Shown here: piece by piece, positions 37,250 through 56,857 of the stretch | Numbering within the stretch: position 1 is the stretch's first letter | How the letters are laid out: every line of letters starts with the position of its first letter | Virus record (IMG/VR): IMGVR_UViG_3300037088_000797 | Location: 1 to 64,000 of that record | Reading direction: 5' to 3' (one strand) | From: a virus | Taxonomy: Duplodnaviria > Heunggongvirae > Uroviricota > Caudoviricetes | DNA length: 64,000 nt | Translations under genes and position numbers: made by a program | The notes under the pieces: generated by a model | The model's database searches: none | Told to the model about the DNA's origin: nothing | Seen by the model: the letters and a program-made list of their open reading frames with translations, nothing else

Positions 37250-37840
37250 TTAAAAAGTTTTATGTGTAAAAAAAATTTTTATATTCTCTACTATTGTGGG
37301 TGTTAAGCCACAGTACTTGTCACATTGAAAGAAATTGAATTGTTGTTTTAATAACATATCCGAATCATCGTCTATTATTGCATATTGATGAAAATCAAAA
37401 TAATGCACACCAAACCACTTCATACAATTATCTTTAAGCCATTTACTTATTTCAGTACCTCTTTCATATCCTGTATATGGTGTTTTATCGATAATTGTAA
37501 AGGTTGCACCGCAATAATTAAATATCTTTTGCAAGTCTTCTACCGACCAACTACTTCTCAATGAAGCACTAATAACGATTGCTGAATTGGTTTCCTTGCA
37601 AAGCCAATTCAATAAACCGATACGCATTTCGCAGGTTTCGCTTTTATAATACTCCAGATCGGTGAGTTGCTTTTGTTTGAGTTGCTTACGAAGATACTTT
37701 TTAACTATCTTATATAAAGGTATACCATCATAACGTTCAAGTACTGCAAACTTCTCGGTATAGAAAAGCTGGCAATTCAGAACGCCATCATGATCAAGAA
37801 AAATAACATGATCGAATTTATTTACTTCTGGTTCAACCAT
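37250..37840 (-). CDS. HAD-like hydrolase (putative phosphatase)
   Basis: HVIFLDHDGVLNC resembles HAD motif I (hhhhDxDx[TV]); similar to gene 40241-40726. Confidence 0.4.
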   Translation of the reverse strand: MVEPEVNKFDHVIFLDHDGVLNCQLFYTEKFAVLERYDGIPLYKIVKKYLRKQLKQKQLTDLEYYKSETCEMRIGLLNWLCKETNSAIVISASLRSSWSVEDLQKIFNYCGATFTIIDKTPYTGYERGTEISKWLKDNCMKWFGVHYFDFHQYAIIDDDSDMLLKQQFNFFQCDKYCGLTPTIVENIKIFFTHKTF

Positions 37841-38079
37841 TCTTTTGCTAATCTGTTATCACGTTCTTCAAATGTTTCGACAGTTACTTCACCACCTGTA
37901 TGACTTTGAATGAGTATATCTAAATCATTTCTAAAAGATTCAAGTTCATCGGTATTATTAAAATAAAATGTACCTTCAAGATTGTAGGTCACTGGACTTT
38001 CGCCCTCTACAATTATGTGAAAACCATTAATTTTCATGATTTTTAAAAGATTGGTTAATAATTTTTTTGTAATTTTCAT
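37822..38079 (-). CDS. hypothetical protein
   Basis: 85 aa; promoter-like motif 38085-38115 immediately upstream. Confidence 0.4.
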   Translation of the reverse strand: MKITKKLLTNLLKIMKINGFHIIVEGESPVTYNLEGTFYFNNTDELESFRNDLDILIQSHTGGEVTVETFEERDNRLAKEWLNQK

Positions 38080-38084
38080 GTCCT

Positions 38085-38115
38085 TTATACGTATGAGTTT
38101 TAAAAAAGGTTACAA
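38085..38115 (-). promoter_or_regulatory. recurrent promoter-like motif
   Basis: ttatacg 38085-38091, ggttacaa 38108-38115; 6 nt from ATG of gene 37822-38079. Confidence 0.5.
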
Positions 38116-38162
38116 ATATTCTTGCAAATATAACTATTTTATTTTAATTACAACTTTTTTTT

Positions 38163-38200
38163 AAAAAAATTTGTTGTTTTAATAAATTGTATTACTTTTG
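38163..38200 (+). promoter_or_regulatory. Bacteroidota-type promoter candidate (-33 TTTG / -7 TAnnTTTG)
   Basis: tttg (about 38170) then about 19-nt spacer then tacttttg at 38193-38200, 18 nt upstream of ATG 38219. Confidence 0.4.
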
Positions 38201-38218
38201 TTGTTTAAAACAAACGCA

Positions 38219-38434
38219 ATGGAAGAAATCAGAAATCATATTGAAGAGAATTTGGTTCATGCCCAAAGAGAATACGATGACATGTTCTATCATTGGGATA
38301 AAGCACAGCAAGCATTTAAAAGTATTGAAGCAGAACTTAAATCATTAACGGTGTCTTTAGAAAAAGCACGTATAAATATGGAATATTATCAAAAATTGTT
38401 AAAAGAATTAAACGAACACGAAAAAATCCAATGA
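38219..38434 (+). CDS. hypothetical coiled-coil protein
   Basis: Track ORF 38198-38434 begins at TTG; first ATG at 38219 (MEEIRNH...). Confidence 0.4.
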   Translation: MEEIRNHIEENLVHAQREYDDMFYHWDKAQQAFKSIEAELKSLTVSLEKARINMEYYQKLLKELNEHEKIQ

Positions 38435-39006
38435 GAGGCGATTTTACAAAAATTAGAGAGTATGCTGAAAAGTGTCACGATGACGCTAACTGCAAATACG
38501 CTGGTGGAAGCTATATGATTCACGTTGATAAAGTCGTATATGTTATTGAAACATATCAGGATATATTTCTTCGTCCAATTGATGCAGAAATTACCAAAGC
38601 TGCTGCATATGGTCATGATCTAATTGAAGATGCAAAACAAACAGTTAGTGAGATAAAAGAAATAATGGGTATTGATGCAGCCAGAGTTGTTCTTAGAGTA
38701 ACCGATGTACCTGCAGAAAATCGGCTAATGAAGCATTTGCTTACAATGGGTAAAACTGTTGAAGACTATCGTGCTATCATTCTTAAAATGGCTGATATTT
38801 GGTCAAATGCAACTTTCAGCAAAATTTCTCGTAGCTCAATGTATGATAAATATGTTGAAGAATATAAGTATCGTAAACCAATATTTCAATTGGGATTAAA
38901 ATGGTATATTGAGTTTCTTGATCAGGAAATACTTAAACAATTATGGGCAGAACTTGATTATGCTCATGGTGTAAAAGGAACTTATTTGAATTTAAAATTA
39001 GAATAA
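38431..39006 (+). CDS. SpoT/RelA-type HD domain protein (small alarmone hydrolase candidate)
   Basis: AAAYGHDLIEDAKQT matches RelA/SpoT hydrolase AALLHDVIEDT block; LRVTDV and RAIILKMADIWSNA resemble downstream KLADRLHN region. Confidence 0.65.
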   Translation: MRGDFTKIREYAEKCHDDANCKYAGGSYMIHVDKVVYVIETYQDIFLRPIDAEITKAAAYGHDLIEDAKQTVSEIKEIMGIDAARVVLRVTDVPAENRLMKHLLTMGKTVEDYRAIILKMADIWSNATFSKISRSSMYDKYVEEYKYRKPIFQLGLKWYIEFLDQEILKQLWAELDYAHGVKGTYLNLKLE

Positions 39007-39272
39007 TGAAAAAAGTTTACAAAGAAAACGCAGAGGCATTAACCTTATGTGACGAAGTGCAACGTTTAACCCGTAGAAGGGATAAACTCAGTGCTGAAAT
39101 TCACAACAAAAGAGAAAAAATGAAATTAGTCTGTACGCATGCTGAAACAAAAGTTGAAAACACTTATGTTGAAGGTGGTTATTTGGATAAAAGCCAATAC
39201 ATAAAAACTACAATTTGTGTTGTGTGTGGAAAAGAACTCGATAAAAAAATAACTTACGGTGGATTTAATTAA
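39006..39272 (+). CDS. small zinc-ribbon protein
   Basis: CDE...CTHAE...CVVCGKE. Confidence 0.4.
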   Translation: MKKVYKENAEALTLCDEVQRLTRRRDKLSAEIHNKREKMKLVCTHAETKVENTYVEGGYLDKSQYIKTTICVVCGKELDKKITYGGFN

Positions 39273-39290
39273 AAACTAAATTTAAATAAA

Positions 39291-39842
39291 ATGAGTGTAA
39301 ATAAATTAAGTCATCTTATGATTGACCTTGAAACAATGGGTAAAGGAAGCAATTCTGCAATTGTATCAATTGGTGCGGTTGAATTTGAATTACAGTCAGG
39401 CGAAACTGGCGAAGAATTCTATACAAGAGTGGATTTACAATCTTGTCTTGACCTTGGACTTAAAGTTAATGCCAGTACAATTTTCTGGTGGTTAATGCAA
39501 AGTGAAAAAGCACGAAAAGAAATTTGTAAAGAAGGTAAACCTTTAAGAGAAGCATTGTTTGATTTAAGTGTTTTTATTAAATTACTTAAAACAGATGTCC
39601 AGACTTGGGGAAATGGTGCAAGATTTGATCTTGGCATTCTTGAAGACGCTTACGATGCTTGTGGTAGTCATATTACTCCTTGGGGTTTCAGGTTTGAAAG
39701 AGACGTAAGAACGCTTGTTTCTTTTGCTCCTGCGATTAAAGATCATTATCCCTTTACAGGGGTAGAACATAATCCAATTGATGATTGCAAATACCAAATC
39801 GGTTATTGTAGCGCAATTTGGAATAAATTAAACACAAAATAA
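39291..39842 (+). CDS. DEDDh 3'-5' exonuclease (DnaQ-like fold)
   Basis: Exo I MIDLETMG, Exo II WGNGARFDLGIL, Exo III HNPIDDCKYQ. Confidence 0.7.
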   Translation: MSVNKLSHLMIDLETMGKGSNSAIVSIGAVEFELQSGETGEEFYTRVDLQSCLDLGLKVNASTIFWWLMQSEKARKEICKEGKPLREALFDLSVFIKLLKTDVQTWGNGARFDLGILEDAYDACGSHITPWGFRFERDVRTLVSFAPAIKDHYPFTGVEHNPIDDCKYQIGYCSAIWNKLNTK

Positions 39843-39845
39843 ACT

Positions 39846-40193
39846 ATGGAAAATTTAACTTCACACACCTTTAAAGAAAAGGTATATGACTTCAACGGTA
39901 CTAATAGAAAACTTCTTGGCACTAAGCCAATTGTAATTGATTTTTATGCTGATTGGTGCAATCCTTGTAAAATGGTTGCCCCTATTCTCGAAGAAATTAG
40001 CACAGAATATCCTAATGTTGAATTTTATAAAATTGACACAGATGCAGAAAGTGAATTAGCTGCAGTGTTTGGAATCAGAAGCATACCTTCTATATTATTC
40101 ATACCAATTGAAGGCATACCCCAAATGATGATGGGAGCACAGCCAAAATCCAGATTTACAAGTATATTGAAAAATGTTTTTGGAATTGAATAA
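39846..40193 (+). CDS. thioredoxin
   Basis: FYADWCNPCKM active-site (WCxPC) in thioredoxin-like arrangement. Confidence 0.75.
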   Translation: MENLTSHTFKEKVYDFNGTNRKLLGTKPIVIDFYADWCNPCKMVAPILEEISTEYPNVEFYKIDTDAESELAAVFGIRSIPSILFIPIEGIPQMMMGAQPKSRFTSILKNVFGIE

Positions 40194-40197
40194 GATT

Positions 40198-40228
40198 TTG
40201 TAACCTTTTAAATAAGGATTACGTATAA
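40198..40228 (+). promoter_or_regulatory. recurrent promoter-like motif (plus orientation)
   Basis: ttgtaacc 40198-40205, cgtataa 40222-40228 (cgtataata); 13 nt before ATG 40241. Confidence 0.5.
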
Positions 40229-40240
40229 TACGCATTTATA

Positions 40241-40726
40241 ATGAAAAATGAAAAACGATATATTTTTTTAGACCTTGATAGCGTTATGATAACAGAAAGG
40301 GAACATCATTCAGAAAATTTACACCCAAAATACATGGTTGACCCGTTTGACCCTATGTGTGTCGAAGTGTTAAACGAGATTACTGAAATTATGCACCCTC
40401 TTATTATACTCACCAGTGATAGAAGATTACGATTTAAACTCAGTGAAATAAATGAAGTTTTTAAATATAATGGTGTTATTTCACCAGTTAAAGATTATAC
40501 TCCTGATTTTTGGGGTACACAATTTACAAAACTTCAAGATGCTGATATGTGTCGTGGATTCGAAATTCTTAGGTATGTTCACCAATATCAAATTGAAAAT
40601 TATGCCGTAGTTGATGATATGAATCTCATGGGTTGGGTTTCAGATCATTTTGTTTGGTGTACAAATTCAACTGACGGACTTAACCAAACTGGACTTAAAG
40701 AAAAAATATTGAAAATTTTAATGTAA
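40241..40726 (+). CDS. HAD-like hydrolase (putative)
   Basis: YIFLDLDSVMIT N-terminal DxDx[TV]-like motif; promoter-like motif 40198-40228 upstream. Confidence 0.4.
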   Translation: MKNEKRYIFLDLDSVMITEREHHSENLHPKYMVDPFDPMCVEVLNEITEIMHPLIILTSDRRLRFKLSEINEVFKYNGVISPVKDYTPDFWGTQFTKLQDADMCRGFEILRYVHQYQIENYAVVDDMNLMGWVSDHFVWCTNSTDGLNQTGLKEKILKILM

Positions 40727-40730
40727 AACA

Positions 40731-42170
40731 ATGTATAATATTATTTTTATGAAAAACGAAAAATTGGAATTATTACTGAACAAGGTTGTTGAGTACAATA
40801 ACCCTGCAGCTTATGATGGCAAAGGCTGTAACTTTAAAGGTTTCCTTTATAAAAACAGTCAGGGATACTACATTAAGGTAGTTGAACATATTAGCGGTAC
40901 TGATATTGCCGTTAATGACAAAATTTACCTTAAAACTGGTGATGATGCATTCATCATCCACGCTGAAAAACCCAAACTCATGAGGGTTGATAAAAATTCA
41001 TGGCATTATAATTTGGTGAAATATGTGCTCGGTGAAAAAGCACCAACACCACAGAATATGCAAAACGGTTGTCCATATTTCTGGTTACTGATTTTTTCAT
41101 TGTTTGCATGTTCATTTCTTGCAATCTGGCAATTTTTGAAATATGTAGTCTTACTGTTTCCAAAGGCATTTATTTGGTGTCTTGAAAAATCAGTTGACAA
41201 TTGGCTTGCAACTATTGATGACATAACAGCATATGAAATGTCAGAAAATCAATATAGTGGTAAGAAAAATGTACAAAAACTTCCACTTACTGCAAAAGTA
41301 TTTTTTGATGCAACAGATGAAAGTTTTTTCAATTATTTTCTTGTTAAGAAATATGGTGAAAGTGCAAGATTTGATAAAGTAAAAAAAGACGAAATTTACA
41401 ACAATTGGGCAAAGTGGCGTAAAGAAGTAAATGAAGCACGTGCAAAACGTGATTCAGAAAGATATGCAAAAGAAGCAGAAGAAAACAAACGTGAATTGAT
41501 TCGTGCTGAAAAAAGAGCAGCTAAAAAAGCTATCTGGGATGCACGTATGCAACCTTTCTATGATTCAAGTAATAAATTCTTTGCAGCACTTCGTGAAGCG
41601 TTCACATTCAGGGGTGACACTAAATCACTTATCAAGAGAACCAAACAAATCGTAGGTGCTCTCATTACCCTTGTATTGCTTGTAGCAGCATTTTTCTTTG
41701 TAGAATGTTTTGCATGGGCATTAATGATCGCAATAGATGCATGTATTAAGTTCTGGTATGTATTTGTAATTATCATTGGTATATGTGCAGTAGCAGGTCT
41801 TTTATACTTCATAGGTGTATTCATTGGTGGTTGGCTTCAAACTCTTGTCAATAAATATAAGGGTGGTAAAAAAGTATGGTATGTTGAACCATTCATTTAT
41901 CTACTTTGGTATCCTGTAAAATATGTAGGACTTGCCATTGGTTATGCTGTATTTTATGTAATTGGCTATCCTCTTAAATTCGTCTTCTATGACTTTCTCT
42001 GGAAAATAGTTCTTGTAAATGTCGGTACATGGATATGGAATGGTTTGTGCTCAATTGGTCGTGGATTGGCTACAAGTACAGGTGTGTTCGGTGAATACGT
42101 TAGTGCTGACTACACAGGTTTGTGCCCCGGTATCGAATGGACTGGCTTTGACGAAGAAGAAACGAAGTAA
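40731..42170 (+). CDS. large membrane protein
   Basis: 479 aa with multiple TM helices and charged coiled-coil segment. Confidence 0.5.
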   Translation: MYNIIFMKNEKLELLLNKVVEYNNPAAYDGKGCNFKGFLYKNSQGYYIKVVEHISGTDIAVNDKIYLKTGDDAFIIHAEKPKLMRVDKNSWHYNLVKYVLGEKAPTPQNMQNGCPYFWLLIFSLFACSFLAIWQFLKYVVLLFPKAFIWCLEKSVDNWLATIDDITAYEMSENQYSGKKNVQKLPLTAKVFFDATDESFFNYFLVKKYGESARFDKVKKDEIYNNWAKWRKEVNEARAKRDSERYAKEAEENKRELIRAEKRAAKKAIWDARMQPFYDSSNKFFAALREAFTFRGDTKSLIKRTKQIVGALITLVLLVAAFFFVECFAWALMIAIDACIKFWYVFVIIIGICAVAGLLYFIGVFIGGWLQTLVNKYKGGKKVWYVEPFIYLLWYPVKYVGLAIGYAVFYVIGYPLKFVFYDFLWKIVLVNVGTWIWNGLCSIGRGLATSTGVFGEYVSADYTGLCPGIEWTGFDEEETK

Positions 42171-42203
42171 TTTGTATTGTTTAACCTTTAAAAACTCAAA
42201 ATT

Positions 42204-42818
42204 ATGTTAACATTTATTTTATCATTTATTGCAACAGTAATAATTTCACTGTGTTTTTTCAAGAGTAAATTCTGGGAAAATAGATACCTTGTTTTATTAA
42301 TCGGTACAGGTGTGGCACTCATTGCCACCCTTGTACTGAATTATTCTGTTCGTGGTAAACTTGCCACAAAAACTGAGATTGCATGGAAAACGCCAGTTAA
42401 ATTCTTTTATGTCAATGATTCGGTGCTTAATGTATCGGATAGTATTGCAATCTTTAAAAACGGTAAATATGATTTCAATAAGGCATCTGGCAGTGAATTC
42501 ATTAAACGTGACACCACAAAAAGTCAGAGAAAACTCAGCATTGTCTTTTTTGGCAGAAATCCAAAAACTCCATTAGTTGGTTATATCAATTTAAAGGGTA
42601 ACACTAATTATAACGCTTTAGAAGACATTTATATTGCACCAAGCGAATCTGACACAGTAGCTTATATGGCAAGAAAAAAACTTCTTTATGACGTTAAACC
42701 AAGCAATTGGATAACTGGCTTTACTTTTCCAAGAAAAATGGCATACACTTGTATGTACATTTCGCCAAAAGAATATGCTAAATTACCCAAAGTATTAATC
42801 AAAAAACTCCCATTCTAA
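42204..42818 (+). CDS. membrane protein
   Basis: 204 aa, two N-terminal TM helices. Confidence 0.45.
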   Translation: MLTFILSFIATVIISLCFFKSKFWENRYLVLLIGTGVALIATLVLNYSVRGKLATKTEIAWKTPVKFFYVNDSVLNVSDSIAIFKNGKYDFNKASGSEFIKRDTTKSQRKLSIVFFGRNPKTPLVGYINLKGNTNYNALEDIYIAPSESDTVAYMARKKLLYDVKPSNWITGFTFPRKMAYTCMYISPKEYAKLPKVLIKKLPF

Positions 42819-43063
42819 TGAAAACCACATTATTACAAATCTTTTTAAAGAAAGAAAAAATTCACTGGAAACGTATCGGGCAGATGTTCGGTAAATACAG
42901 TAATTGGATTGGTAAACTAACCTTTGGTGTTATTGTCGCAGCTTTATTAATCGTAGTGCATTACGCAATGACATTCATGCACTTGTTTTATGAATTCGGA
43001 CTATTTATTTTCGCTCGTGACATGTTCAGAGCAAACTTACAGAAACTTGCATTAAAAGTATAA
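42818..43063 (+). CDS. small membrane protein
   Basis: 81 aa, TM helices. Confidence 0.4.
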   Translation: MKTTLLQIFLKKEKIHWKRIGQMFGKYSNWIGKLTFGVIVAALLIVVHYAMTFMHLFYEFGLFIFARDMFRANLQKLALKV

Positions 43064-43066
43064 ATT

Positions 43067-43195
43067 ATGACACTAAAAGAATTTCTTGATTATGTAGGAC
43101 AGGATAGTAACCATTTTTGGGGTTTCATACTTGTGTTATTAATCGTTGGCGGTACTCTTAGAGAAACCGCAAAATATATATTCAGAAGAAAATGA
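43067..43195 (+). CDS. small membrane protein (42 aa)
   Basis: ATG 43067, TGA overlaps ATG of next gene; hydrophobic FWGFILVLLIVGG. Confidence 0.3.
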   Translation: MTLKEFLDYVGQDSNHFWGFILVLLIVGGTLRETAKYIFRRK

Positions 43196-43710
43196 GTTTA
43201 TTTGTAACAGACGTAGAGTCAGACGGACAAATTATTGGCAGACACAGTATGGTATGTTTTGGTGTGGTTAAACTCACACCAGAACTTGACACCACTTTTT
43301 ATGGTAAAATTAAACCAATATCTGATATTTATGACCCAGATGCACTTGCTGTAAGTGGGTTCAGTAGGGAAGAACACCTTAAATTTGATCATCCAGAAGA
43401 TGTTATGTTAGCTTTTGCTGTTTGGTTAAAAGAAAATTCAGTCGGCAGACCCATATTAATTTCTGATAATAATGGCTATGATGCCAGTTGGATTAATTAT
43501 TATTTTCGTGTATATCATGGTGAAAATCCTTTTGGTTGGTCTTCAAGACGAATTGGTGACCTGTATTGTGGGATGATGAAAGATACGTGGGCAGGTTGGA
43601 AAAAACTTAGGGTAACACGTCATACTCACAATCCTGTCGATGACGCTATGGGTAATGCAGAAGCACTACTTAAAATGAAAGCTATGGGACTTAAAATTGA
43701 TACTAAATAA
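43192..43710 (+). CDS. DEDDh 3'-5' exonuclease (second copy, distinct sequence)
   Basis: Exo I FVTDVESDG, Exo II ISDNNGYDASWI, Exo III HNPVDDAMGNAEAL. Confidence 0.7.
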   Translation: MSLFVTDVESDGQIIGRHSMVCFGVVKLTPELDTTFYGKIKPISDIYDPDALAVSGFSREEHLKFDHPEDVMLAFAVWLKENSVGRPILISDNNGYDASWINYYFRVYHGENPFGWSSRRIGDLYCGMMKDTWAGWKKLRVTRHTHNPVDDAMGNAEALLKMKAMGLKIDTK

Positions 43711-43712
43711 TT

Positions 43713-43934
43713 ATGGCAAGATACGTAAAAGACACACCCAGACTAACCGTTAAATTTATTAACGCAGATACTGAAGCAACAATACTTGAATTAAAAGACA
43801 GAACATGGATGAATATTGGAGAATTACTTAATGATCATTCAGTTGATGCTGTTGTTAAAAGCGAAATAAAAGATAAAGAACTACCTGAAAACATAATGGT
43901 GCTCGTGGTAGCTGAATACACATTGCAGAAATAA
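43713..43934 (+). CDS. hypothetical protein
   Basis: 73 aa ORF. Confidence 0.4.
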   Translation: MARYVKDTPRLTVKFINADTEATILELKDRTWMNIGELLNDHSVDAVVKSEIKDKELPENIMVLVVAEYTLQK

Positions 43935-43944
43935 GTTTGTTTTT

Positions 43945-43975
43945 TTGTAACCTTTTTAATGTTACTTTCGTATAA
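43945..43975 (+). promoter_or_regulatory. recurrent promoter-like motif (plus orientation)
   Basis: ttgtaacc 43945-43952, cgtataa 43969-43975; upstream of gene 44002. Confidence 0.5.
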
Positions 43976-44001
43976 TAGACAGTAACAATAAATTTACTAT
44001 T

Positions 44002-44700
44002 ATGAAAAAATCAATTTTTATTATCGCAATTTTGCTTGTCGCAAACACAGCATTTGCGCAGTTAAGCGGTCTTCTTGACTACATTCAAAAAAGACCCGCA
44101 TATGAATTTAATGAACTTCCCTTTGCAGGTAAATTCGGTACAGATAAACTTCATAGTTATATTTATACCTTAACTCCAGAGAAGTTTCAGCAAATGATCG
44201 ATGAAACAACTTGGATGAAAGATTATTTAAGTACGAAAACATACTCATTTTTCAAAGAGGGTAAATTCTACATGCTTTCATATGATACTTGCAGTACTTG
44301 TGGTAAAAATCCAAGAGTTGATAAGCCAATTAAAAGAGACTTATATTTATTCTGTTTGGACAATGGTAAATGGACTAAAGTTTCGGATGCATTACAAACC
44401 GATTATTTCAGCATGGATTTAGATGCTTGGAAGCCAAATACAATTGAACATGTGATTTGGTCGTCTTATTGCTATTTTCCTTGGAGAACAGCAGGTGACT
44501 TACCTGCAGATAAGGGACAATTCGGTTATGGTGTGACAGATGGTAGCGTAACTGTATCAGCTAATGGGGACGTTACAATTGTACTTGTAAATTATAAAAC
44601 GTATGATGATGATTACAGCAAATTTGGTATTAAACGATCATTTGAAAATAAAACAGTTGATCTTAAATTTAATGGTGAGTTTTATACACTTAAAAAATAA
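44002..44700 (+). CDS. secreted protein
   Basis: Signal peptide MKKSIFIIAILLVANTAFAQ (Bacteroidota-like). Confidence 0.5.
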   Translation: MKKSIFIIAILLVANTAFAQLSGLLDYIQKRPAYEFNELPFAGKFGTDKLHSYIYTLTPEKFQQMIDETTWMKDYLSTKTYSFFKEGKFYMLSYDTCSTCGKNPRVDKPIKRDLYLFCLDNGKWTKVSDALQTDYFSMDLDAWKPNTIEHVIWSSYCYFPWRTAGDLPADKGQFGYGVTDGSVTVSANGDVTIVLVNYKTYDDDYSKFGIKRSFENKTVDLKFNGEFYTLKK

Positions 44701-45128
44701 TGCAAAAAGTAGCGACATACATACAGACAATAGGATGTGAAATGTTCAAAAAGTTCATTTCACTTCCTTTTTCAATTAACTTACTTTATTCGTTAACCAA
44801 TGAAGAAGGTATTAATGTAATCTTTGACGGTTGGCATGGTAAGGATATGGGTACTTGGTGTAAATTTTATAATGAAGAAAAATTTATTCTTGAATTTTAT
44901 GCAGAATATTATTTCATCAAATATGGAAATAGAGAAAACCAAAAACTGCCACTACCAAAAACCATTAATAATTTTATTAATGATATGGATAGATTTGAAG
45001 TGCCTCTTTACTGGAATCAATGGATGGAAGATAATTTCGAACCAAAAGATTATTTGCACGTTGATGATATTCCAAAGTACTTCACTAACCTTCTGATTAA
45101 AATGAAGAAGGAAGAGGATTTGAACTAA
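44700..45128 (+). CDS. hypothetical protein
   Basis: 142 aa ORF, ATGA coupled. Confidence 0.45.
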   Translation: MQKVATYIQTIGCEMFKKFISLPFSINLLYSLTNEEGINVIFDGWHGKDMGTWCKFYNEEKFILEFYAEYYFIKYGNRENQKLPLPKTINNFINDMDRFEVPLYWNQWMEDNFEPKDYLHVDDIPKYFTNLLIKMKKEEDLN

Positions 45129-45160
45129 ACGCTTGCTTTTTAAAAAAAAATCACTTACAT

Positions 45161-45928
45161 TTGACGTTTCTACCTATGCTTATAGATAAAAAATATTGGG
45201 GTATTTGGGATAACACGACATTTAAAACGGTATGTTATCATAAGAACTTTGACTTGATTAATGATGACGAAAGCCTCATTACCGAGTACAGAGGTACAAT
45301 ATCTCTTATAAGATTGGCAGAATATAAACCACCTGTTCTTATGGGTGAGTTTGAACTTTCTGAATGGAATGTAGGATTAGGTATTAAGTTTGAAGCAGAT
45401 TTGGTTAAACTCATAAAAAAGCATAAAGCAGAAATTATTTACAGTGAATTACTGAGTGTAATAAAAAATAACGAAATTGACATTACCAAGTATAAGAAGA
45501 TCGTGTTTGTCGCAAATCTTATTGTGCGTCCAGACTTTAGAAAATTTGGATTAACTGAAGAGTTCATTGAATTGCTTTTTAGAGAACATTATAATGAAGG
45601 CGATGCAATTATTGCATTAGTAAAACCATTACAGGAGAATCCAATTGATAAAGATCATTACTTTAATCAGGAAATTGTTGAAGTAAAACTTTCGCTTCAA
45701 AATAATAATGAAATTGAATTTATACCTGCAGTTGACTATTACAAGTTGAATGAGTTGCTTGAAAAGAAAGACACTGAAACAAACGAATATAAACTTTTTT
45801 CAGTTGCAGCCAGATGTGGTTTCAATAGAATAGGTGAATCTTATTTATTCAATTTCTCACCTGAAAGAACAATGCAAAGAATGATCGAAAAAAGAGAATA
45901 CGTTAAAAAAGTAAATAATCTTATTTAA
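45161..45928 (+). CDS. hypothetical protein
   Basis: 255 aa; track start is TTG; first ATG at 45176. Confidence 0.45.
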   Translation: MTFLPMLIDKKYWGIWDNTTFKTVCYHKNFDLINDDESLITEYRGTISLIRLAEYKPPVLMGEFELSEWNVGLGIKFEADLVKLIKKHKAEIIYSELLSVIKNNEIDITKYKKIVFVANLIVRPDFRKFGLTEEFIELLFREHYNEGDAIIALVKPLQENPIDKDHYFNQEIVEVKLSLQNNNEIEFIPAVDYYKLNELLEKKDTETNEYKLFSVAARCGFNRIGESYLFNFSPERTMQRMIEKREYVKKVNNLI

Positions 45929-45939
45929 AACCATCAATT

Positions 45940-46188
45940 ATGTCAAAGAAAAAAAAGAAAAAATTCGGAAAACTGGATGAAGGCTACTATACTGAAGCTA
46001 TTGACAGAGCATACATTGTAGCCAATATGATGGAAGATGTTTTAATTGATCATCCTGTTTTTAAAAAGCATAAAGATTTACGCAAAAGGGTTAAAAAGGC
46101 ACAAGAACTTGTTTTGGAAGCATATCAAATCATTGGTGGACTAACAGTCGAACTGTTTCCAGCGAGCAATCTGCCTGAAAATAAGTAA
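45940..46188 (+). CDS. hypothetical protein
   Basis: 82 aa ORF. Confidence 0.4.
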   Translation: MSKKKKKKFGKLDEGYYTEAIDRAYIVANMMEDVLIDHPVFKKHKDLRKRVKKAQELVLEAYQIIGGLTVELFPASNLPENK

Positions 46189-46330
46189 CTTGTAGTTTAT
46201 GAGTTATTGAAGTATTTATACTGAATAAAGAATGAATAATAATATAGAAATATCAACTTGTATTTTACGAAAAATCCCTTCTTGGAAGGTTGATATTGTT
46301 CAAAATTTGGTTGTACTAACTCACATACTA

Positions 46331-46365
46331 CCCAGAAAAACACAAATTTCTGGGCATTTTCATTT
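46331..46365 (+). terminator. putative intrinsic terminator
   Basis: CCCAGAAA-aacacaa-TTTCTGGG stem-loop followed by CATTTTCATTT. Confidence 0.45.
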
Positions 46366-46443
46366 AAAAACCTTAATAATTACAGAAAATCAGGCTTCTA
46401 ACACACTGATTCTCTGATTAATAACTTTACTAAAATTAAATTT

Positions 46444-47088
46444 ATGAAAAAAATTATGTTATTGTTGATAATTCTTGTTTCTACATTTTTCATTAATGGA
46501 AGCTATACTTCTGCAGATAATGCAGGAATGAATAATCCTCTTATTGAAAAATTTAAGAGACAATATTATCTTGAAAACATGGTTAAGGAAATTGAGGCTG
46601 AATCTGAACTAAAAATTCCTAACTATGTTGATATGAAATACATTGAGTATATGTATGATTTGGGTAAAAAACTTGAAATACCCACAAGATTAACATTTAG
46701 ACTTGTATTTAAAGAATCAAGTTTCATTGATACTGTTAAATCTTGTGAAGGTGCTGAAGGTTTTATGCAATTAATGCCAGAGACAGAAGAATTATATGCA
46801 AATGCACTTCGAGTAGATACACTTCACCTTGATGTTAATCAAGAAAATATCTATATTGGTCTTAATATGTTAAAAGACCTGTATAATTATTGGAATAATG
46901 ATAAGGGTAAACCAGAATCTTATGCTTGGAAACTCAGCCTTGCCAGTTATAATGCAGGTATTGGTAAAGTACTTAAATATAATGGCATTCCACCATATAA
47001 AGAAACTCTGAAATATATTGAATTTATATTGAGAGAACATTCACTTAATACAATTAATAACGACATAAATTACTTAGCAATAAAATAG
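46444..47088 (+). CDS. lytic transglycosylase (SLT domain) with signal peptide
   Basis: ESSFIDTVKSCEGAEGFMQLMPET matches SLT catalytic E-S...G.MQ block; N-terminal signal. Confidence 0.7.
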   Translation: MKKIMLLLIILVSTFFINGSYTSADNAGMNNPLIEKFKRQYYLENMVKEIEAESELKIPNYVDMKYIEYMYDLGKKLEIPTRLTFRLVFKESSFIDTVKSCEGAEGFMQLMPETEELYANALRVDTLHLDVNQENIYIGLNMLKDLYNYWNNDKGKPESYAWKLSLASYNAGIGKVLKYNGIPPYKETLKYIEFILREHSLNTINNDINYLAIK

Positions 47089-47089
47089 T

Positions 47090-47395
47090 ATGAAAACACA
47101 AATACAGTCAATTCATGAAGAAACTTATTCTGATGGTAGCAAAACATTAGGTGTTCTTTTAAATTATAATGAAGATCAGACATTCAAAGAAAGTTTCACA
47201 TTTATTTTTAACACCGAAAAGAAAATGTATATCTTCTTTAGCACTATCATAGACATGATCGATTATCTCATGTATGGTGAAATGCAAGGCAAAACCAAGG
47301 TGAAAAGAGCATATATGGAAGAAGCTGAATTTGATCAATATTATGATGCTGATAACATCAATGCTAAGTTCACAGAAATATTAAAATGGGTCTAA
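47090..47395 (+). CDS. hypothetical protein
   Basis: 101 aa ORF. Confidence 0.4.
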   Translation: MKTQIQSIHEETYSDGSKTLGVLLNYNEDQTFKESFTFIFNTEKKMYIFFSTIIDMIDYLMYGEMQGKTKVKRAYMEEAEFDQYYDADNINAKFTEILKWV

Positions 47396-47628
47396 TTTCA
47401 CGCATTTCGGTATTTATAGGTATGAATACCGAAATGCATTTTAGAACAAAACTTTACTGGAATAACTTATCTAAGGATGATAGACTGGAATTATTGCAAA
47501 AATACAACTTTTGGGGTGGTTTTAGCGATTATCTGTATGATTATATACCAGAAGACCTTAAAGAAGTAATATCGCTTAAAATCGATTTAAAGGATGAAAT
47601 TGACGAGAAATCTACAATGATCTCTTAA
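47386..47628 (+). CDS. hypothetical protein
   Basis: 80 aa ORF; 3' end overlaps convergent patatin gene. Confidence 0.35.
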   Translation: MGLISRISVFIGMNTEMHFRTKLYWNNLSKDDRLELLQKYNFWGGFSDYLYDYIPEDLKEVISLKIDLKDEIDEKSTMIS

Positions 47629-48553
47629 TTGGTAAAAAAACCTCTACTCTGTTTTTGTCAAAGGCAGTATTATAACCTTCTTCCCACCATGCAAGCATTT
47701 CTTCTTGATTAAATACCATTGAACTTCTGCTTAACCTTCTTGGTAACCAATATATGGTAACTTTTGCACCTTGTTTGTTAAGTCTTTTTATTCTTTCATA
47801 AAAATATTCATGTTCAATATCGTAACGTGTTGCCGAAATATTCGTAATAACATTTTCAATAATATTATTGATTTTATTTCCTTCAGATTTTTCATCTATA
47901 CGTGCTCGATGCAACACTATATCGATCTCTTTGAAACCTTTCATCATTAATTGATCTATGCCAATTAAATCTGATATTCCACCATTACTCCATTGACCAA
48001 CATGAAAACTACCAGTGTTATTATTCCAACCCATATTCACTAAAGAAGTAAAAAATGGAAAATTGGCACTACACCACATCCAGTCTTTAAACTCTTCAAG
48101 TTCAATATCTGCAGAACTAAAATAATGAATTCTTGAAGGTACTTGTGAGTAATTCTGTGCACCCACGAGAATTTCTTTATTTAAAATTCTTAATTCATCA
48201 AAAATTTCTTGGGGAAAAAATTTATCGATTGTATTTCTTAAGACATTAGATGTACGTACAGATTTTTGATTTAATAATAAACTTGTTATTACGGCAAATT
48301 TATTTATTTTACCTTTTTTATTTAAAGGCATTGGCTTGTACCAACATTTGTCAAACACATCCTCATTCTTTATTGAGGTATATCTTGTTTTAAGTATTTC
48401 CCATTCTTTTACTGCCGTAAACGGTCCTAAAAGATTTCCTGTTGATACTCCAACAATAGTATCATAATCCTCATTAATTCTTGCAAGTGTACCACCACCA
48501 AACGCTCCCCAGCTACCACCCCCTGAAATTAATAATGCACGTTTAGAACTCAT
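47612..48553 (-). CDS. patatin-like phospholipase
   Basis: Glycine-rich oxyanion motif ISGGGSWGAFGGG and nucleophile elbow GVSTG (GxSxG). Confidence 0.7.
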   Translation of the reverse strand: MSSKRALLISGGGSWGAFGGGTLARINEDYDTIVGVSTGNLLGPFTAVKEWEILKTRYTSIKNEDVFDKCWYKPMPLNKKGKINKFAVITSLLLNQKSVRTSNVLRNTIDKFFPQEIFDELRILNKEILVGAQNYSQVPSRIHYFSSADIELEEFKDWMWCSANFPFFTSLVNMGWNNNTGSFHVGQWSNGGISDLIGIDQLMMKGFKEIDIVLHRARIDEKSEGNKINNIIENVITNISATRYDIEHEYFYERIKRLNKQGAKVTIYWLPRRLSRSSMVFNQEEMLAWWEEGYNTAFDKNRVEVFLPIKRSL

Positions 48554-48575: not shown

Positions 48576-48611
48576 CAAAAAAAAATAAAGTAAGCTACTA
48601 TGACTTACTTT
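48576..48611 (-). terminator. putative intrinsic terminator (minus strand)
   Basis: AAAGTAAG-9nt-CTTACTTT stem; A-run upstream on plus strand gives U-tract on minus transcript. Confidence 0.45.
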
Positions 48612-48639
48612 ATTTCAGATAATAATATGAAAACAAAAA

Positions 48640-49491
48640 TTACACTTGTCTCATTTCATTCATGAGTTGAATTACAAGATTTGTTTGAGTTGCTGACTGC
48701 AATGACACAAAATCCAATGCCTTTTTGGGGTCAGTTTCTACTGTTGCCCAATATTCTTTAGATAGATCAGCATGTGTTTCAAGACTAACACTCTTTTTAA
48801 GTCCAAGAAAATCTGCAATTAACATTAATGGACTGTATTCAAAACCATTGAATTTCCATACATTAACGGTGTCAATTATACCAGACTCCCAAGGTTTAAT
48901 GTTCAATGCTCTTTTTAAAAGATAAGGAAGAGATTTAATCGTTTGATATTTGCCCCTGTTTACAATGAACCTTTTAATTAAAAGAGGTATGTCATAAGAA
49001 ATAATATTATGACCGCACAATATTGAAAACACTTGTGGAGTTGATTGTGAATCATCACTTGAAATTTCAGTAAGTAATGCCATGAATTGTTCGATCACCA
49101 TAGCTTCATCATCGCTTACTATTTTTTTTAAATGTCTCTTCACTTCTCCATTCTCAGTGTATAGAGTTGCATATGATATTGCAACGATTCTGACAAACTC
49201 AGGATGCATAACTGCATTTTCTTCATAAATTTTCTGTCCATATACTGCAGTTTCATCAGTCATAGTCCCTGCAACAGCATGTATAACATCCAAGTCAAAA
49301 GCATGTTTGACTTTAGAAAGATATTTCCAACGTTCATACATTTGTGGATTGTTAACTTTAAGAAGATCGAGAGTAGGATAGATTAAAACTGCCTTAATAT
49401 TAAAAAACAGCATCCCGAATACTCTTTGTTTATGAAATACGTCATCAAATAGTGCCATAAATAAATTTTTTAATTGATTAATTGTACGCAA
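48640..49491 (-). CDS. hypothetical protein, possible DEDD-type exonuclease
   Basis: GHNIISYDIPLL (Exo II-like) and HADLSKEYWATVETD (Exo III-like); Exo I not convincingly identified. Confidence 0.35.
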   Translation of the reverse strand: MRTINQLKNLFMALFDDVFHKQRVFGMLFFNIKAVLIYPTLDLLKVNNPQMYERWKYLSKVKHAFDLDVIHAVAGTMTDETAVYGQKIYEENAVMHPEFVRIVAISYATLYTENGEVKRHLKKIVSDDEAMVIEQFMALLTEISSDDSQSTPQVFSILCGHNIISYDIPLLIKRFIVNRGKYQTIKSLPYLLKRALNIKPWESGIIDTVNVWKFNGFEYSPLMLIADFLGLKKSVSLETHADLSKEYWATVETDPKKALDFVSLQSATQTNLVIQLMNEMRQV

Positions 49492-49522
49492 ATATATAGT
49501 AAAAAAACCTAACTTACAAGGA

Positions 49523-49873
49523 TTATAAATTAAATATAAAATGAAAAATTTTACTAATAAAGGATTGTTTTTCTATTTTAAGTTCATTGTAGATGTCCTG
49601 TACGTCATTATAAGTATAACCAATTAATTCTTCTTTGGTATACTTCTCGTCACAATGTCTTAATATATAGGGAATTAATTTTTGGCTTTTAAGTGCCTGA
49701 TTTCTTTTTTTTCTTTCGATTTCTTTGACGAGATTATCGGCAACTTCCTGAATTTCACGAGCAGTTAAATTCTTTTTTCTTCTGGTGTCATCTTCCAAAT
49801 ATTCAGAAAATGCTTTATAGTCTTTGTCATCATCATCCGAATCGATTGATAATATACTCTTATCGATTGCCAT
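49523..49873 (-). CDS. hypothetical protein
   Basis: 116 aa ORF. Confidence 0.4.
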   Translation of the reverse strand: MAIDKSILSIDSDDDDKDYKAFSEYLEDDTRRKKNLTAREIQEVADNLVKEIERKKRNQALKSQKLIPYILRHCDEKYTKEELIGYTYNDVQDIYNELKIEKQSFISKIFHFIFNL

Positions 49874-49878
49874 AAATA

Positions 49879-50415
49879 TTAATTGAGTTCAGTTGGGGGA
49901 ATTGAAGTTGTTTCAGTTGTACCGCTTGTGGTGACAGTTGTTGCAGCTTTTTCAGCTTCCATTTCAGCTTTGGTTCTTCTATGTCTTTTCTTTTCTTCAC
50001 TTTCAGGACGTAAGTTTTTTTCAAAATCTGCATTACGATCATTAAAAGAATCTGCTCTCATTTTGTCAAGTTCTACGTAGTATGCTTTAACCTCTTTTTC
50101 AAGATTTTCTTTCATTGCAGACATCTTGTCGGTGAATTCTTTTTCTTTTTCTGCAATTTTCTTATTGGTTTCCATTATAATGCCAACAAATGAAATAAGA
50201 TCATCAATAACAATATCTGGATTCTTGGGACTGATTTTGATTATTTTTCCGCCCTCTACTTCATTGAGTACTTCACATTTTATTTCTTTATTTTCGTTGA
50301 AAACCCATCCTTTTGGTATACCAATTTGCATTTCATACCATCCTTCCATAGCGTTACGTGTAATGGAGATTAAATATCCAGTAATAGGTTCTAAGAGTGC
50401 TTCAATTGTCTTCAT
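49879..50415 (-). CDS. hypothetical protein
   Basis: 178 aa ORF. Confidence 0.45.
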   Translation of the reverse strand: MKTIEALLEPITGYLISITRNAMEGWYEMQIGIPKGWVFNENKEIKCEVLNEVEGGKIIKISPKNPDIVIDDLISFVGIIMETNKKIAEKEKEFTDKMSAMKENLEKEVKAYYVELDKMRADSFNDRNADFEKNLRPESEEKKRHRRTKAEMEAEKAATTVTTSGTTETTSIPPTELN

Positions 50416-50419
50416 TATT

Positions 50420-50620
50420 TTAATTAATTATATATGATAAAAAAGTTGCTAATGATAACCAAAGCATGATTTTTTCTGCTATTGATAATTCAAAAGTAAC
50501 TGTAGTTTGTTTCAAAGCAAATCTTCCATACATTTTTATAAATAAACCACCAAAGATATATATTATAAAGATGATGGAAGAAATGAATAACCACTGATAT
50601 ATTTCAGCTATTATTGTCAT
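50420..50620 (-). CDS. small membrane protein (holin-like)
   Basis: 66 aa, two TM helices. Confidence 0.35.
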   Translation of the reverse strand: MTIIAEIYQWLFISSIIFIIYIFGGLFIKMYGRFALKQTTVTFELSIAEKIMLWLSLATFLSYIIN

Positions 50621-50623
50621 TTG

Positions 50624-50905
50624 TTATTCGCCAAAGGTTTGTCCCGGATGTACAACTGCTGGTTGTGCTGCTGCTGCAGGTGCTACTGCTGGTGCTGCAA
50701 CTACTGCAGGTGCATCAGGAAAATATTGATTAGCTAACCCAAGCTGTCCGTTCAAAACTGCAATTCTTTCAAGTTTGAATGCCATATTGATGATTTTTTC
50801 TTCATAATTCATGTTTGGGTCTGCTGCAAGACGACCTAACTCAAGTTCTGCATAATATTTTTCAGTGCCTAACTTATTCATAAGGTCTTGTTTAACGTTT
50901 GCCAT
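50624..50905 (-). CDS. hypothetical protein with Ala/Pro-rich C-terminus
   Basis: Track ORF 50624-50974; likely ATG at 50905 (MANVKQ...). Confidence 0.4.
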   Translation of the reverse strand: MANVKQDLMNKLGTEKYYAELELGRLAADPNMNYEEKIINMAFKLERIAVLNGQLGLANQYFPDAPAVVAAPAVAPAAAAQPAVVHPGQTFGE

Positions 50906-50980
50906 AATTTTTTTTAATTTAAATAATATTATTTTTGTGCTCGTAAAAATAGCGAATATAAATACAACATGCAAGAGTTT

Positions 50981-51418
50981 TTAAACAATCTCTAATATAT
51001 TTTTTTCCAGATTGATAGACTTATCGAACACATTATAAATTTCAACAAGAAGATTTAGTACATTTTTGTTTTTCTGTTTATCAATTTCGAAAATACCTTT
51101 CCAGAATCTTTCATAGTATTCAATTGAAGTATTTTGATTCATGTTATTTTTGTCGATCTTGTAGAACTGGTGGTAATAGTAATCGTAAAAATATTTTCTT
51201 AAATCATTGTTTTTTCTAAAGTCAAGTCCTTCTAATAAAAATTCATCACATACCTTATAAAAACACCATGTGTAATGATTATATATGTCTTCATCCTTAC
51301 TCAAAGTTTCTTTATCAAGATAATAATTATAGATATAATATAAGAGATTCAATGCGAAATCTCTATATATTTCCACCCTATTGTTAATTATCTGAAATCT
51401 TTGAGTAACATTAGCCAT
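50981..51418 (-). CDS. hypothetical protein
   Basis: 145 aa ORF. Confidence 0.4.
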   Translation of the reverse strand: MANVTQRFQIINNRVEIYRDFALNLLYYIYNYYLDKETLSKDEDIYNHYTWCFYKVCDEFLLEGLDFRKNNDLRKYFYDYYYHQFYKIDKNNMNQNTSIEYYERFWKGIFEIDKQKNKNVLNLLVEIYNVFDKSINLEKNILEIV

Positions 51419-52105: not shown

Positions 52106-52198
52106 AGCATTCTCTTTTACCCATAAATACTTACAAATAATTATGGGGTACTAATTAAATTAATACCCCACAAATGTAATAAATTTTTTTTAAATTAG

Positions 52199-52567
52199 CT
52201 AATAATATTTTGCTTCTAAAGCATCATATTCATTACTATTTACACCAAGTTCTTTTCTAATCTTTCGAATTCTCAAATTATTAAAAATTACTGCGCTGAA
52301 AAGATACAATACAAGTGCAGCTAATATAATTGAATATGGTATTATAAATATTCCCACAATGTGTATCGATAAATTTAATATTGTTGCAATCATCCCAAGT
52401 AAAAACAATCCACCAAGAATACCAACAACTGTGTTTTTAACGCCAAAGTCTTTTCTTTCTGTTGATTTTGAAAAATACTTATATGCAAATTTAATCCAAT
52501 TACTTGGCATGTGATTATCATATGCTATATCAAACTGTTCTTTGGTTATTGTTTTCCAATCACTCAT
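52199..52567 (-). CDS. membrane protein (holin candidate)
   Basis: 122 aa with two TM helices, immediately upstream of GH25 lysozyme gene. Confidence 0.4.
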   Translation of the reverse strand: MSDWKTITKEQFDIAYDNHMPSNWIKFAYKYFSKSTERKDFGVKNTVVGILGGLFLLGMIATILNLSIHIVGIFIIPYSIILAALVLYLFSAVIFNNLRIRKIRKELGVNSNEYDALEAKYY

Positions 52568-55904: not shown

Positions 55905-55940
55905 GTTATTTTATCTGTTGTTTATAAATACTTAGCTGGC

Positions 55941-55980
55941 GCAAAAAGAAAGAACGCATACCATATTTAATATGCGTTCT
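55941..55980 (-). terminator. intrinsic terminator (minus strand)
   Basis: Perfect 10-bp stem AGAACGCATA/TATGCGTTCT with 10-nt loop; GCAAAAAGAA on plus gives U-rich tract on minus transcript. Confidence 0.6.
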
Positions 55981-56819: not shown

Positions 56820-56857
56820 AATTATAAATATTTATAATAAATACTCAGGAAATGAAA

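Follow-up and report, generated by a model that had tools for sequence, protein, structure and literature searches.

A conserved rightward arm and its borders

We analysed 64 kb of viral DNA (positions 1 to 64,000 of IMG/VR record IMGVR_UViG_3300037088_000797; hereafter the window, in whose numbering all coordinates are given) from an uncultivated jumbo-phage lineage. Our subject is a 9.4-kb block in which 18 to 19 open reading frames (ORFs) follow one another in an unbroken series on the + strand from 38219 to 47628, with - strand genes on both sides. The GC skew changes from about -0.16 to between +0.11 and +0.17 and back again exactly over this interval, and the block holds 18 of the 21 + strand ORFs that occur among the window's 95 non-overlapping ORFs of 70 aa or more. 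Just one more + strand ORF of some size exists (20379-21089); it is similar to the GIY-YIG endonuclease I-TevI and therefore looks like a homing endonuclease, a selfish insertion rather than a second rightward arm. The block is the only real rightward arm of the window, and the initial annotation, made from the sequence alone, had correctly recognised it as an opposite-strand segment of 9.4 kb. That annotation went on to suggest a counter-defence island or one that degrades signalling nucleotides. Our analysis showed that the block is instead a conserved rightward transcription arm of this jumbo-phage lineage and not an inserted, inverted or mobile island. An opposite-strand arm is ordinary architecture for a large phage, and we have corrected the "island" label accordingly.

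The borders of the arm needed small adjustments. The strand switch on the left had been placed properly, but the first gene begins at an ATG at 38219, a start conserved in the closest relative (locus L002), rather than at the TTG at 38198 that had been proposed; the start of a downstream gene, m14, was likewise corrected to the ATG at 45176. On the right, the convergent overlap reported at 47612-47628 is real and amounts to 17 bp between the 3' end of m19 and a patatin gene. The GC content of the block equals that of its flanks, and the magnitude of its skew is typical of the genome. No inverted or direct repeats border the block, as a repeat search returned promoter copies only; Pfam identified no recombinase domain among the arm proteins, and Rfam no RNA family within the arm. 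None of the hallmarks of a mobile or invertible island that we looked for (repeats, a recombinase, odd composition, variable orientation) was found.

A megablast search of the block against 50,697 phage records gave no nucleotide match, and a tblastn search of the same records with a 1056-aa neighbour gave none either. As this left no cultured relative for synteny analysis, we used loci from IMG/VR, 11 of them retrieved through the patatin gene and 26 further distinct loci through m14, down to 38% m14 identity. In all 11 patatin-anchored loci the whole arm occupies the same place, convergent with the patatin gene and divergent from o85/HAD_SAK_2/R2K, with an identical backbone order. In the m14-anchored loci, to which all counts out of 26 refer, all arm genes detected run in the direction of m14, and the right-flank genes r283 to r1056 occur on the other strand in 26/26. 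Three arm genes (m11, m14, and m18) occur in every one of these loci and a fourth, m13, in 25. The arm is therefore a fixed architecture, because its position and orientation do not change among the relatives examined, its core is universal, its GC content is like that of its flanks, and no repeats border it. Arm proteins are also no more divergent than flank proteins.

Within this fixed frame the gene content is of two kinds. The core consists of m11, m13, m14, and m18 together with a slot for a secreted cell-wall hydrolase. In the window this slot holds a lytic transglycosylase of the SLT family, while an M23 peptidase stands there in L003 (11421-12161), L006 (11472-12359), and L009 (3168-4052). 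This non-orthologous replacement suggests that the slot demands a secreted peptidoglycan hydrolase whose type is interchangeable. In the shell, which is the 5' half, enzymes and a membrane cassette come and go, as do homing endonucleases, TnpB, and GmrSD_N proteins. The enzymes that the initial annotation had singled out each occur in 46-81% of the 26 relatives, from Exo2 (21 loci), HAD (20), HD and Exo1 (17 each) to thioredoxin (Trx; 12); the SLT gene is present in 14. The variable slots contain a GIY-YIG/NUMOD3 homing endonuclease in L003, GmrSD_N-domain proteins in L009 and L010, and DUF7487. In L008 (15166-17105), and also in L011, Exo2 is missing and is replaced by a 377-aa TnpB with a Cas12f1-like TNB domain, YopX, and small ORFs. 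The expectation that the block would vary among relatives thus holds for the flagged enzymes, which are shell genes, but not for the arm and its core, which are conserved and syntenic. The neighbouring patatin and GH25 muramidase genes occur in only 12/26 and 9/26 loci, respectively. The leftward arms equally carry genes of repair or counter-defence type, among them those for NADAR, Thg1, NUDIX, a dCMP deaminase, a DNA-repair-type ligase, an RNA ligase, an R2K ATP-grasp protein, and a second HAD_SAK_2.

Promoters and gene content

The phage promoter motif TTGTAACCTTTT has nine matches in the window at no more than one mismatch, where 1.5 would be expected, and none of 100 shuffled sequences reached nine. 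Its bipartite full form, TTGTAACC(T)TTT-N10-11-CGTATAA, is present at nine sites, including a further variant, TTGTAACCAATT, at 17142. Each full-form site lies 5-45 nt upstream of a start codon and points in the gene's own direction, among them 40198 (+), 43945 (+), and 38115 (-). This agrees with the earlier observation that the arm uses, at 40198 and 43945, the same motif as the other arms. Relatives carry the motif in the corresponding slots, most consistently before m12. The TTGTAACC...CGTATAA promoter is specific to this lineage and fits neither the sigma-70 nor the Bacteroidota consensus. Divergent promoters had also been proposed at 38085-38200, and both exist, but the rightward one is a Bacteroidota-type site rather than a copy of the phage motif. 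The corresponding consensus, TTTG-N19-TAnnTTTG, is found at 13 sites in the window compared to 3.0 +/- 1.4 in mononucleotide shuffles. This host-type site at the head of the arm is kept in L002 and L010, while L003, L004, L006, and L007 have a variant phage-type motif in its place. With a host-type promoter at the head of the arm in some relatives and a phage-type one in others, the sequence does not reveal whether the arm is early or late.

Based on these motifs, the arm would comprise three transcription units. The first would run from the host-type promoter through m01 to Trx, the second from the phage promoter at 40198 through HAD to m11, and the third from the phage promoter at 43945 through the secreted-protein slot to m19 (Table 1).

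Two further details of the divergent region concern the leftward side. The ATG of o85 (38079) lies only 5 nt after the CGTATAAAGGAC end of the - strand phage promoter (window 38077-38115), which implies a leaderless or near-leaderless mRNA. A conserved TGCAAATATA box at 38126-38135 is also present in L002, L004, and L007. Read on the - strand, the box is TATATTTGCA, which corresponds to a Bacteroidota -7 element and lies upstream of the leftward phage promoter; host-type and phage-type promoters may therefore stand in tandem before the leftward arm.

Table 1. Genes and promoters of the rightward arm and at its borders. Loci, number of the 26 m14-anchored loci in which the gene occurs.
Feature	Position	Strand	Loci	Description
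Phage-type promoter	38085..38115	-		TTGTAACCTTTT...CGTATAA; drives leftward o85, HAD_SAK_2, R2K, ligase
Host-type promoter-like site (Bacteroidota)	38170..38200	+		TTTG-N19-TACTTTTG; head of rightward arm
m01	38219..38434	+	3	Small coiled-coil protein
m02 (HD)	38431..39006	+	17	Single-domain SpoT/Mesh1-type HD hydrolase, small alarmone hydrolase-like
m03	39006..39272	+	1	88-aa protein with paired Cys motifs
m04 (Exo1)	39291..39842	+	17	Rv2179c-like DEDDh 3'-5' exonuclease
m05 (Trx)	39846..40193	+	12	Thioredoxin, WCNPC motif
Internal phage-type promoter	40198..40229	+		TTGTAACCTTTT-N12-CGTATAAT; upstream of HAD gene; same motif in same slot of L002
m06 (HAD)	40241..40726	+	20	HAD_SAK_2, phosphatase-type, DLD motif
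m07, m08, m09	40731..43063	+	10-11	479 aa, about 4 transmembrane segments; 204 aa, 2 segments; 81 aa, 1 segment (hydropathy)
m10 (Exo2)	43192..43710	+	21	Cap18-family DEDDh exonuclease
m11	43713..43934	+	26	73-aa protein, no assigned function
Internal phage-type promoter	43945..43976	+		Upstream of variable secreted-protein slot (m12); kept in 8 of 11 patatin-anchored loci
m12	44002..44700	+	7	Secreted protein, signal peptide ending AFA-Q; hypervariable slot
m13	44700..45128	+	25	142-aa protein, near-universal
m14	45176..45928	+	26	250-aa GNAT-fold protein, acetyltransferase-like
m15, m16	45940..46417	+	11, 5	82 aa; 61 aa, doubtful
m17 (SLT)	46444..47088	+	14	Secreted SLT lytic transglycosylase
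m18, m19	47090..47628	+	26, 9	101 aa; 80 aa; no assigned function
Patatin-like phospholipase	47612..48553	-	12	Convergent neighbour

The functions that had been suggested for individual arm genes were recovered by profile searches and hydropathy analysis. In the 5' half, the first of two predicted DEDDh exonucleases, Exo1, matches PF16473 (E 5e-54, profile positions 2-177 of 177) and has the DLE, FD, and HNPIDD motifs in the alignment. Exo1 is 45-48% identical to the exonucleases of P22-like, epsilon34, mEp, and Vibrio phages. Its match to T4 DexA (8KEL) is distant (E 4e-6), with a length of 183 aa compared to 227 aa in DexA, and nothing in the window points to a genome with modified bases or to the temperature switch described among the roles of DexA (PMC12153337). 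The thioredoxin was identified by Pfam with an E value of 1e-23 and HAD_SAK_2 in m06 with one of 5e-19; m06 has no sequence relative in the PDB and is a paralogue of the leftward gene at 37250-37840. Three to four membrane proteins had been predicted, and hydropathy analysis supports three, m07 to m09, a trio that is gained and lost among relatives as a cassette.

The 3' unit combines the core with secreted proteins. Hydropathy analysis confirmed an N-terminal signal peptide in m12, whose slot is filled in relatives by unrelated proteins of 175-356 aa. The SLT domain of m17 is well supported (PF01464, E 1e-16; KESS, GFMQLMP, and SYNAG motifs), and the protein has an N-terminal signal sequence. 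By the same hydropathy analysis, m13, m14, and m18 lack a signal peptide or transmembrane segment. The AF2 model of m13 is confident, yet no structural relative was found for it. The m14 protein adopts a GNAT fold but belongs to a family restricted to this phage group, with no match in Pfam, PHROG, or NCBIfam. Its invariant R122-K123-x-G-x-T segment resembles the acetyl-CoA-binding motif A (Q/RxxGxG/A). The doubtful m16 (46232-46417) is missing from the gene calls of the ENA record and has terminator-like hairpins at 46277-46289 and 46331-46354, yet a tblastn search recovers it from the patatin-anchored relatives with 49-75% identity. A small gene is one possibility, and a conserved terminator or RNA element lying between m15 and the SLT gene is another.

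The HD hydrolase and the Cap18-family exonuclease

The protein m02 was predicted to be a SpoT-type HD protein, and our Pfam search concurs, with HD_4 (PF13328) scoring 30.1 bits against a cut-off of 27.2 over residues 10-122 of 191. TIGR00691, the sole addition from NCBIfam, matched weakly and through its N-terminal hydrolase part only, and m02 has no synthetase domain. The best PDB matches are the hydrolase domains of Rel/SpoT and the Mesh1 proteins of Drosophila and human. Residues H31, H62, D63, E66, D67, D122, and N126 are invariant in six orthologues (48-91% identity) and align with HDxxED and AD..N of Mesh1. They correspond to the metal ligands H...HD...D, the ED diad, and the Asn of the hydrolase site of Mesh1 and the RelA/SpoT homologue (RSH) RelSeq. 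As a single domain of 191 aa in which this site is intact, m02 is built like a small alarmone hydrolase (SAH). Stand-alone phage SAHs from Salmonella phage PVP-SE1 and from SSU5 have been reported to neutralise all tested toxins of the toxic small alarmone synthetase (toxSAS) type, and a role in counter-defence has been proposed for them (PMC7229694). Like PVP-SE1 PbcSpo, SSU5 PaSpo, and Mesh1, m02 is a stand-alone single domain of about 190 aa with HD_4 and an intact site, and like the former two it is encoded by a phage. However, HD proteins of the phage collection reach no more than 24-30% identity with m02, and it is assigned to no named SAH subfamily. It also differs from long RSH proteins in the motif around D122, which is ADIWSN instead of ADRLHN. 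PADLOC has no match to the HD or HAD protein, nor to m14, m13, or m07.

The second DEDDh exonuclease, Exo2, is indeed different from the first, as had been proposed. In Pfam it reaches only 19 bits with the Rv2179c-like family and does not match RNase_T, while the PADLOC model PDLC00753, for an exonuclease of cyclic oligonucleotide-based antiphage signalling systems (CBASS), scores 98 bits (E 1e-28) over 166/184 positions, compared to 19 bits for a generic DEDDh model. Exo2 also matches PDB entry 7T2S at E 4e-19, the structure of Cap18 from E. coli upec-117 (PMC11981726). In an alignment with CBASS-linked proteins, residues D7, E9, D97, H146, and D151 of Exo2 are invariant (corresponding to D9, E11, D101, H157, and D162 of VcExo), and the NPFG motif and the DP(E/D)ALAV segment of those proteins are kept. 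Mapping the reported substrate-contact positions of VcExo (D49, E51, V55, N97, and F120) indirectly, by offset from the catalytic residues, gives D, D, V, N, and the invariant Phe of NPFG, followed by W116, in Exo2; E. coli Cap18 itself departs from the VcExo contact residues at two positions. Compared with the Cap18/CBASS exonucleases of 7T2S, V. cholerae, and S. marcescens, Exo2 thus has the same DEDDh residues and motifs and a near full-length profile match, but it lacks a 7-residue insert before the His motif, stands outside any CD-NTase operon, and falls in a clade with flavobacterial chromosomal genes and huge phages of Bacteroidota. By sequence, then, Exo2 is a member of the Cap18 family, but one that is not associated with CBASS.

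The Cap18-type enzymes of CBASS are reported to be 2'-5'-selective phosphodiesterases without detectable activity on ordinary DNA or RNA, to suppress cGAS-type signalling and, by removing the linear pppA[2'-5']pG intermediate, to put a threshold on the synthesis of cyclic GMP-AMP (cGAMP) (bioRxiv 10.1101/2025.03.04.641389). Phage homologues of Cap18 are not mentioned in that preprint, and our literature search found none. Homologues of Exo2 on proteobacterial plasmids (34-37% identity) are all located in or beside CBASS-type contexts. Those of Klebsiella and Pseudomonas (about 34% identical to Exo2) lie beside complete type II CBASS operons, an Enterobacter copy adjoins a CBASS remnant disrupted by an insertion sequence, and the Agrobacterium and Bradyrhizobium copies are in four-gene operons that are possibly type III CBASS. 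We found no homologues of CD-NTase, Cap2, Cap3, or SAVED in the window or in 58 phage loci using tblastn, with Klebsiella Cap2 and Cap3 among the queries.

The closest cellular homologues of Exo2 are single-copy, stand-alone chromosomal genes of Flavobacteriia, which in Chryseobacterium and Flavobacterium have a fixed, non-defence context. Among their neighbours are genes for a tRNA synthetase, a flavodoxin-like reductase, PAP2, a histidine kinase, and an AraC-type regulator. The phage Exo2 proteins cluster separately in a distance tree, with an identity of about 58% to the flavobacterial group and of about 32% to the CBASS group. Exo2 is the best-conserved protein of the arm, with a mean identity of 67%, and it is abundant in metagenomes, with more than 7,900 protein clusters, the top 120 of which are all at least 72% identical. 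It is also present in huge phages of 735 kb and 462 kb. LR756501 and LR756500, both huge phages, have Exo2 in common with the window but no further gene of the arm or flanks within +/-20 kb, and so could not serve for the synteny of the arm.

Stand-alone Cap18-family exonucleases outside CBASS operons were seen in chromosomes of Chryseobacterium, Flavobacterium, Kordia, Fluviicola, and others (L020-L097), and in Chryseobacterium a gene for a class I (Trp/Tyr) tRNA synthetase lies upstream of it. We also considered whether a GNAT gene near the Exo2 homologue in Chryseobacterium and Flavobacterium mirrors the pairing of Exo2 and m14 in the arm, and rejected this link: the two GNATs are barely homologous to each other (32% over 59 aa), both are unrelated to m14, and they are missing beside the gene in Kordia, Fluviicola, and other genera.

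Readings of the arm and its phage lineage

We favour, with moderate confidence, a reading in which an arm of fixed architecture is combined with conditioning of the host by hydrolysis of alarmones and short nucleic acids. The HD enzyme would hydrolyse (p)ppGpp/(p)ppApp or a tRNA 3'-pyrophosphate, dampening both the stringent response and defence of the toxSAS type. Oligonucleotides and nucleotides may be processed by the DexA-like Exo1 and the HAD phosphatase, and the Cap18-like Exo2 would degrade short oligonucleotides or dinucleotides, possibly 2'-5' linked. Most likely the shell enzymes condition the infected cell, with their substrates and any counter-defence effect predicted from their relatives; that HD and Exo2 act against immunity based on alarmones and on 2'-5' nucleotides is plausible but unproven. 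Several points weigh against this reading. The relatives were retrieved through genes in or beside the arm (patatin and m14), so that lineages without the arm would escape, and the left-flank statistics are restricted by a 10-kb flank. The three-unit organisation and its timing are read from motifs alone, and the head promoter differs between relatives. Finally, no function is assigned to the four core genes by which the arm is defined, and m13 matches no known fold.

T4-like and other large phages are known to have plastic ("hyperplastic") regions of early and auxiliary genes. The arm shares with these regions its small and mostly uncharacterised genes, its own promoters, homing endonucleases, a mix of nucleotide-metabolism and host-takeover genes, and a pattern of anchors and slots. 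It differs in being a discrete opposite-strand unit with sharply conserved borders, a universal four-gene core, and a lineage-specific promoter. The arm is of a kind already known, a plastic auxiliary arm of large phages, with the Cap18-like enzyme as the sole element that is possibly new biology.

Among the alternatives, an ordinary nucleotide economy is a substantial, though less likely, possibility. The exonucleases would be DexA- or Orn-like scavengers, the thioredoxin would serve ribonucleotide reduction, HAD would be a nucleotidase, and HD a general phosphohydrolase or a means of relieving stringent control, with no immune target. The strong conservation of Exo2, the conserved non-defence contexts of its closest cellular homologues, and the absence of CD-NTase, Cap2, Cap3, and SAVED homologues from the window and its relatives are all consistent with this, as are the dCMP deaminase and NUDIX genes elsewhere in the window. 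However, the characterised Cap18 proteins are reported to be 2'-5'-selective, with no activity detected on ordinary DNA or RNA (bioRxiv 10.1101/2025.03.04.641389), Exo2 prefers the CBASS exonuclease model to the generic DEDDh model by 98 to 19 bits, and HD carries the ED diad specific to RSH proteins rather than a generic HD site.

It is also conceivable, and compatible with the other readings, that the 3' unit and possibly the membrane cassette form a cell-envelope module that acts in lysis, wall remodelling, or superinfection exclusion, although we consider this rather doubtful. The slot that always holds a secreted peptidoglycan hydrolase, be it an SLT or an M23 enzyme, the hypervariable secreted protein directly behind a conserved phage promoter, the three membrane proteins, and the adjoining patatin-like phospholipase and GH25 muramidase fit such a role. 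The universal m13, m14, and m18 fit it poorly, since none of them is predicted to be secreted or membrane-bound; we could not identify a holin or spanin, and the patatin and GH25 genes are themselves variable.

A more specific proposal, which we regard as unlikely, is that Exo2 is an anti-CBASS factor, or one directed against 2'-5' oligonucleotides, that would destroy the diffusible linear 2'-5' intermediate of cGAMP synthesis. The phage would then have turned the host's own regulator into a weapon, paired with an SAH that disarms abortive infection by toxSAS. The known phage nucleases against CBASS and Pycsar, Acb1 and Apyc1, have the 2H or metallo-beta-lactamase (MBL) fold. They share with this proposal the concept of a phage phosphodiesterase that removes an immune nucleotide signal; Exo2 has a DEDDh fold instead and, if Cap18-like, would destroy a linear 2'-5' intermediate and not the cyclic product.

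The suggestion of the initial annotation, a variable accessory island dedicated to counter-defence through degradation of immune signalling nucleotides, appears improbable. It is right in that the flagged enzymes are shell genes, two of them with their nearest characterised relatives in immune signalling. Exo2 is of the Cap18 family by sequence and travels without the rest of the arm into other huge phages; HD has an intact SAH-type site, and phage SAHs are reported to neutralise toxSAS (PMC7229694). GmrSD_N-domain proteins also occupy one slot. On the other hand, the arm itself is fixed in position and orientation with a universal core, flank-equal GC, and no bordering repeats, and its slots are largely filled by selfish DNA such as homing endonucleases and TnpB. 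Genes of similar type are spread across the leftward arms, and Exo2 is the most conserved arm protein, with its nearest homologues in stand-alone housekeeping contexts rather than in CBASS. The idea that the block was recently inverted or came in as a mobile element (an invertible segment, a transposon, or a foreign cassette) is effectively refuted. Nothing but the strand switch and the presence of mobile genes in slots of some relatives speaks for it, while the orientation is constant down to 38% m14 identity, no repeats other than promoters flank the arm, no recombinase is encoded in it, and its GC and skew magnitude are typical.

Three aspects deserve attention beyond this genome. A Cap18-family exonuclease is widespread and strongly conserved, outside CBASS operons, both in giant phages of Bacteroidota and in the chromosomes of Flavobacteriia. 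The phage copies of Exo2 are candidates for a new mode of anti-CBASS action, and the chromosomal copies raise the question of what role a stand-alone enzyme of this family has. In addition, m11, m14, m18, and the near-universal m13 are markers of the phage lineage, and its specific promoter motif, together with the Bacteroidota-type promoter, provides handles for the annotation and host assignment of an abundant group of uncultivated jumbo phages.

The window overlaps an ENA metagenome scaffold, and window proteins were also found on a 178.5-kb contig; the IMG/VR relatives are contigs of 200-365 kb. Its T4-like gene set comprises a Dda-like helicase, a fused SbcCD, an ATP-dependent ligase, an RNA ligase, Endo VII, and homing endonucleases, and the best matches of the helicase are in crAss-like phages at about 30-35% identity. 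The promoter type and the homologues of Exo2 suggest Bacteroidota as the most likely hosts, with Flavobacteriia or a group close to them as the probable source. The Bacteroidota-type promoter consensus is enriched in the window, and Exo2 shares 62-68% identity with its chromosomal homologues in Chryseobacterium, Flavobacterium, and Kordia and 69% with the copy in the 735-kb huge phage, which has been predicted to infect Bacteroidetes (PMC7162821).

Some related sequences appear under bacterial names. A 39-kb contig of a Ferruginibacter metagenome-assembled genome (MAG; L095) and a 9.4-kb contig of a Chitinophagaceae MAG (L051) carry Exo2 copies that fall within the phage clade and not in the chromosomal flavobacterial group. 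These are probably phage contigs inside MAG bins and may hint at Chitinophagaceae hosts. The closest relative, L002 / L018 (IMGVR_UViG_3300029288_000055, identical to GenBank JBAZIW010000001.1; 362,763 bp), was deposited as "MAG: Candidatus Paceibacterota bacterium" and appears to be a phage genome mis-binned as a bacterium of the candidate phyla radiation (CPR).

Outside the arm (window 1-37000 and 48600-64000), Pfam also identified a peptide deformylase, Endo VII, SEC-C, two GIY-YIG/NUMOD3 endonucleases, and one LAGLIDADG endonuclease. The PADLOC models E1-E2, E2, pVip, dCTPase, PDC-M16A, PDC-M42C, and PDC-S68 were matched by ORFs of the window. The phage also encodes an FtsH-like AAA+/M41 protease of 646 aa (26318-28258, - strand), and an SbcD-type phosphoesterase and an SbcC-type AAA_23 ATPase are fused in a single protein of 1108 aa (60599-63925, - strand).

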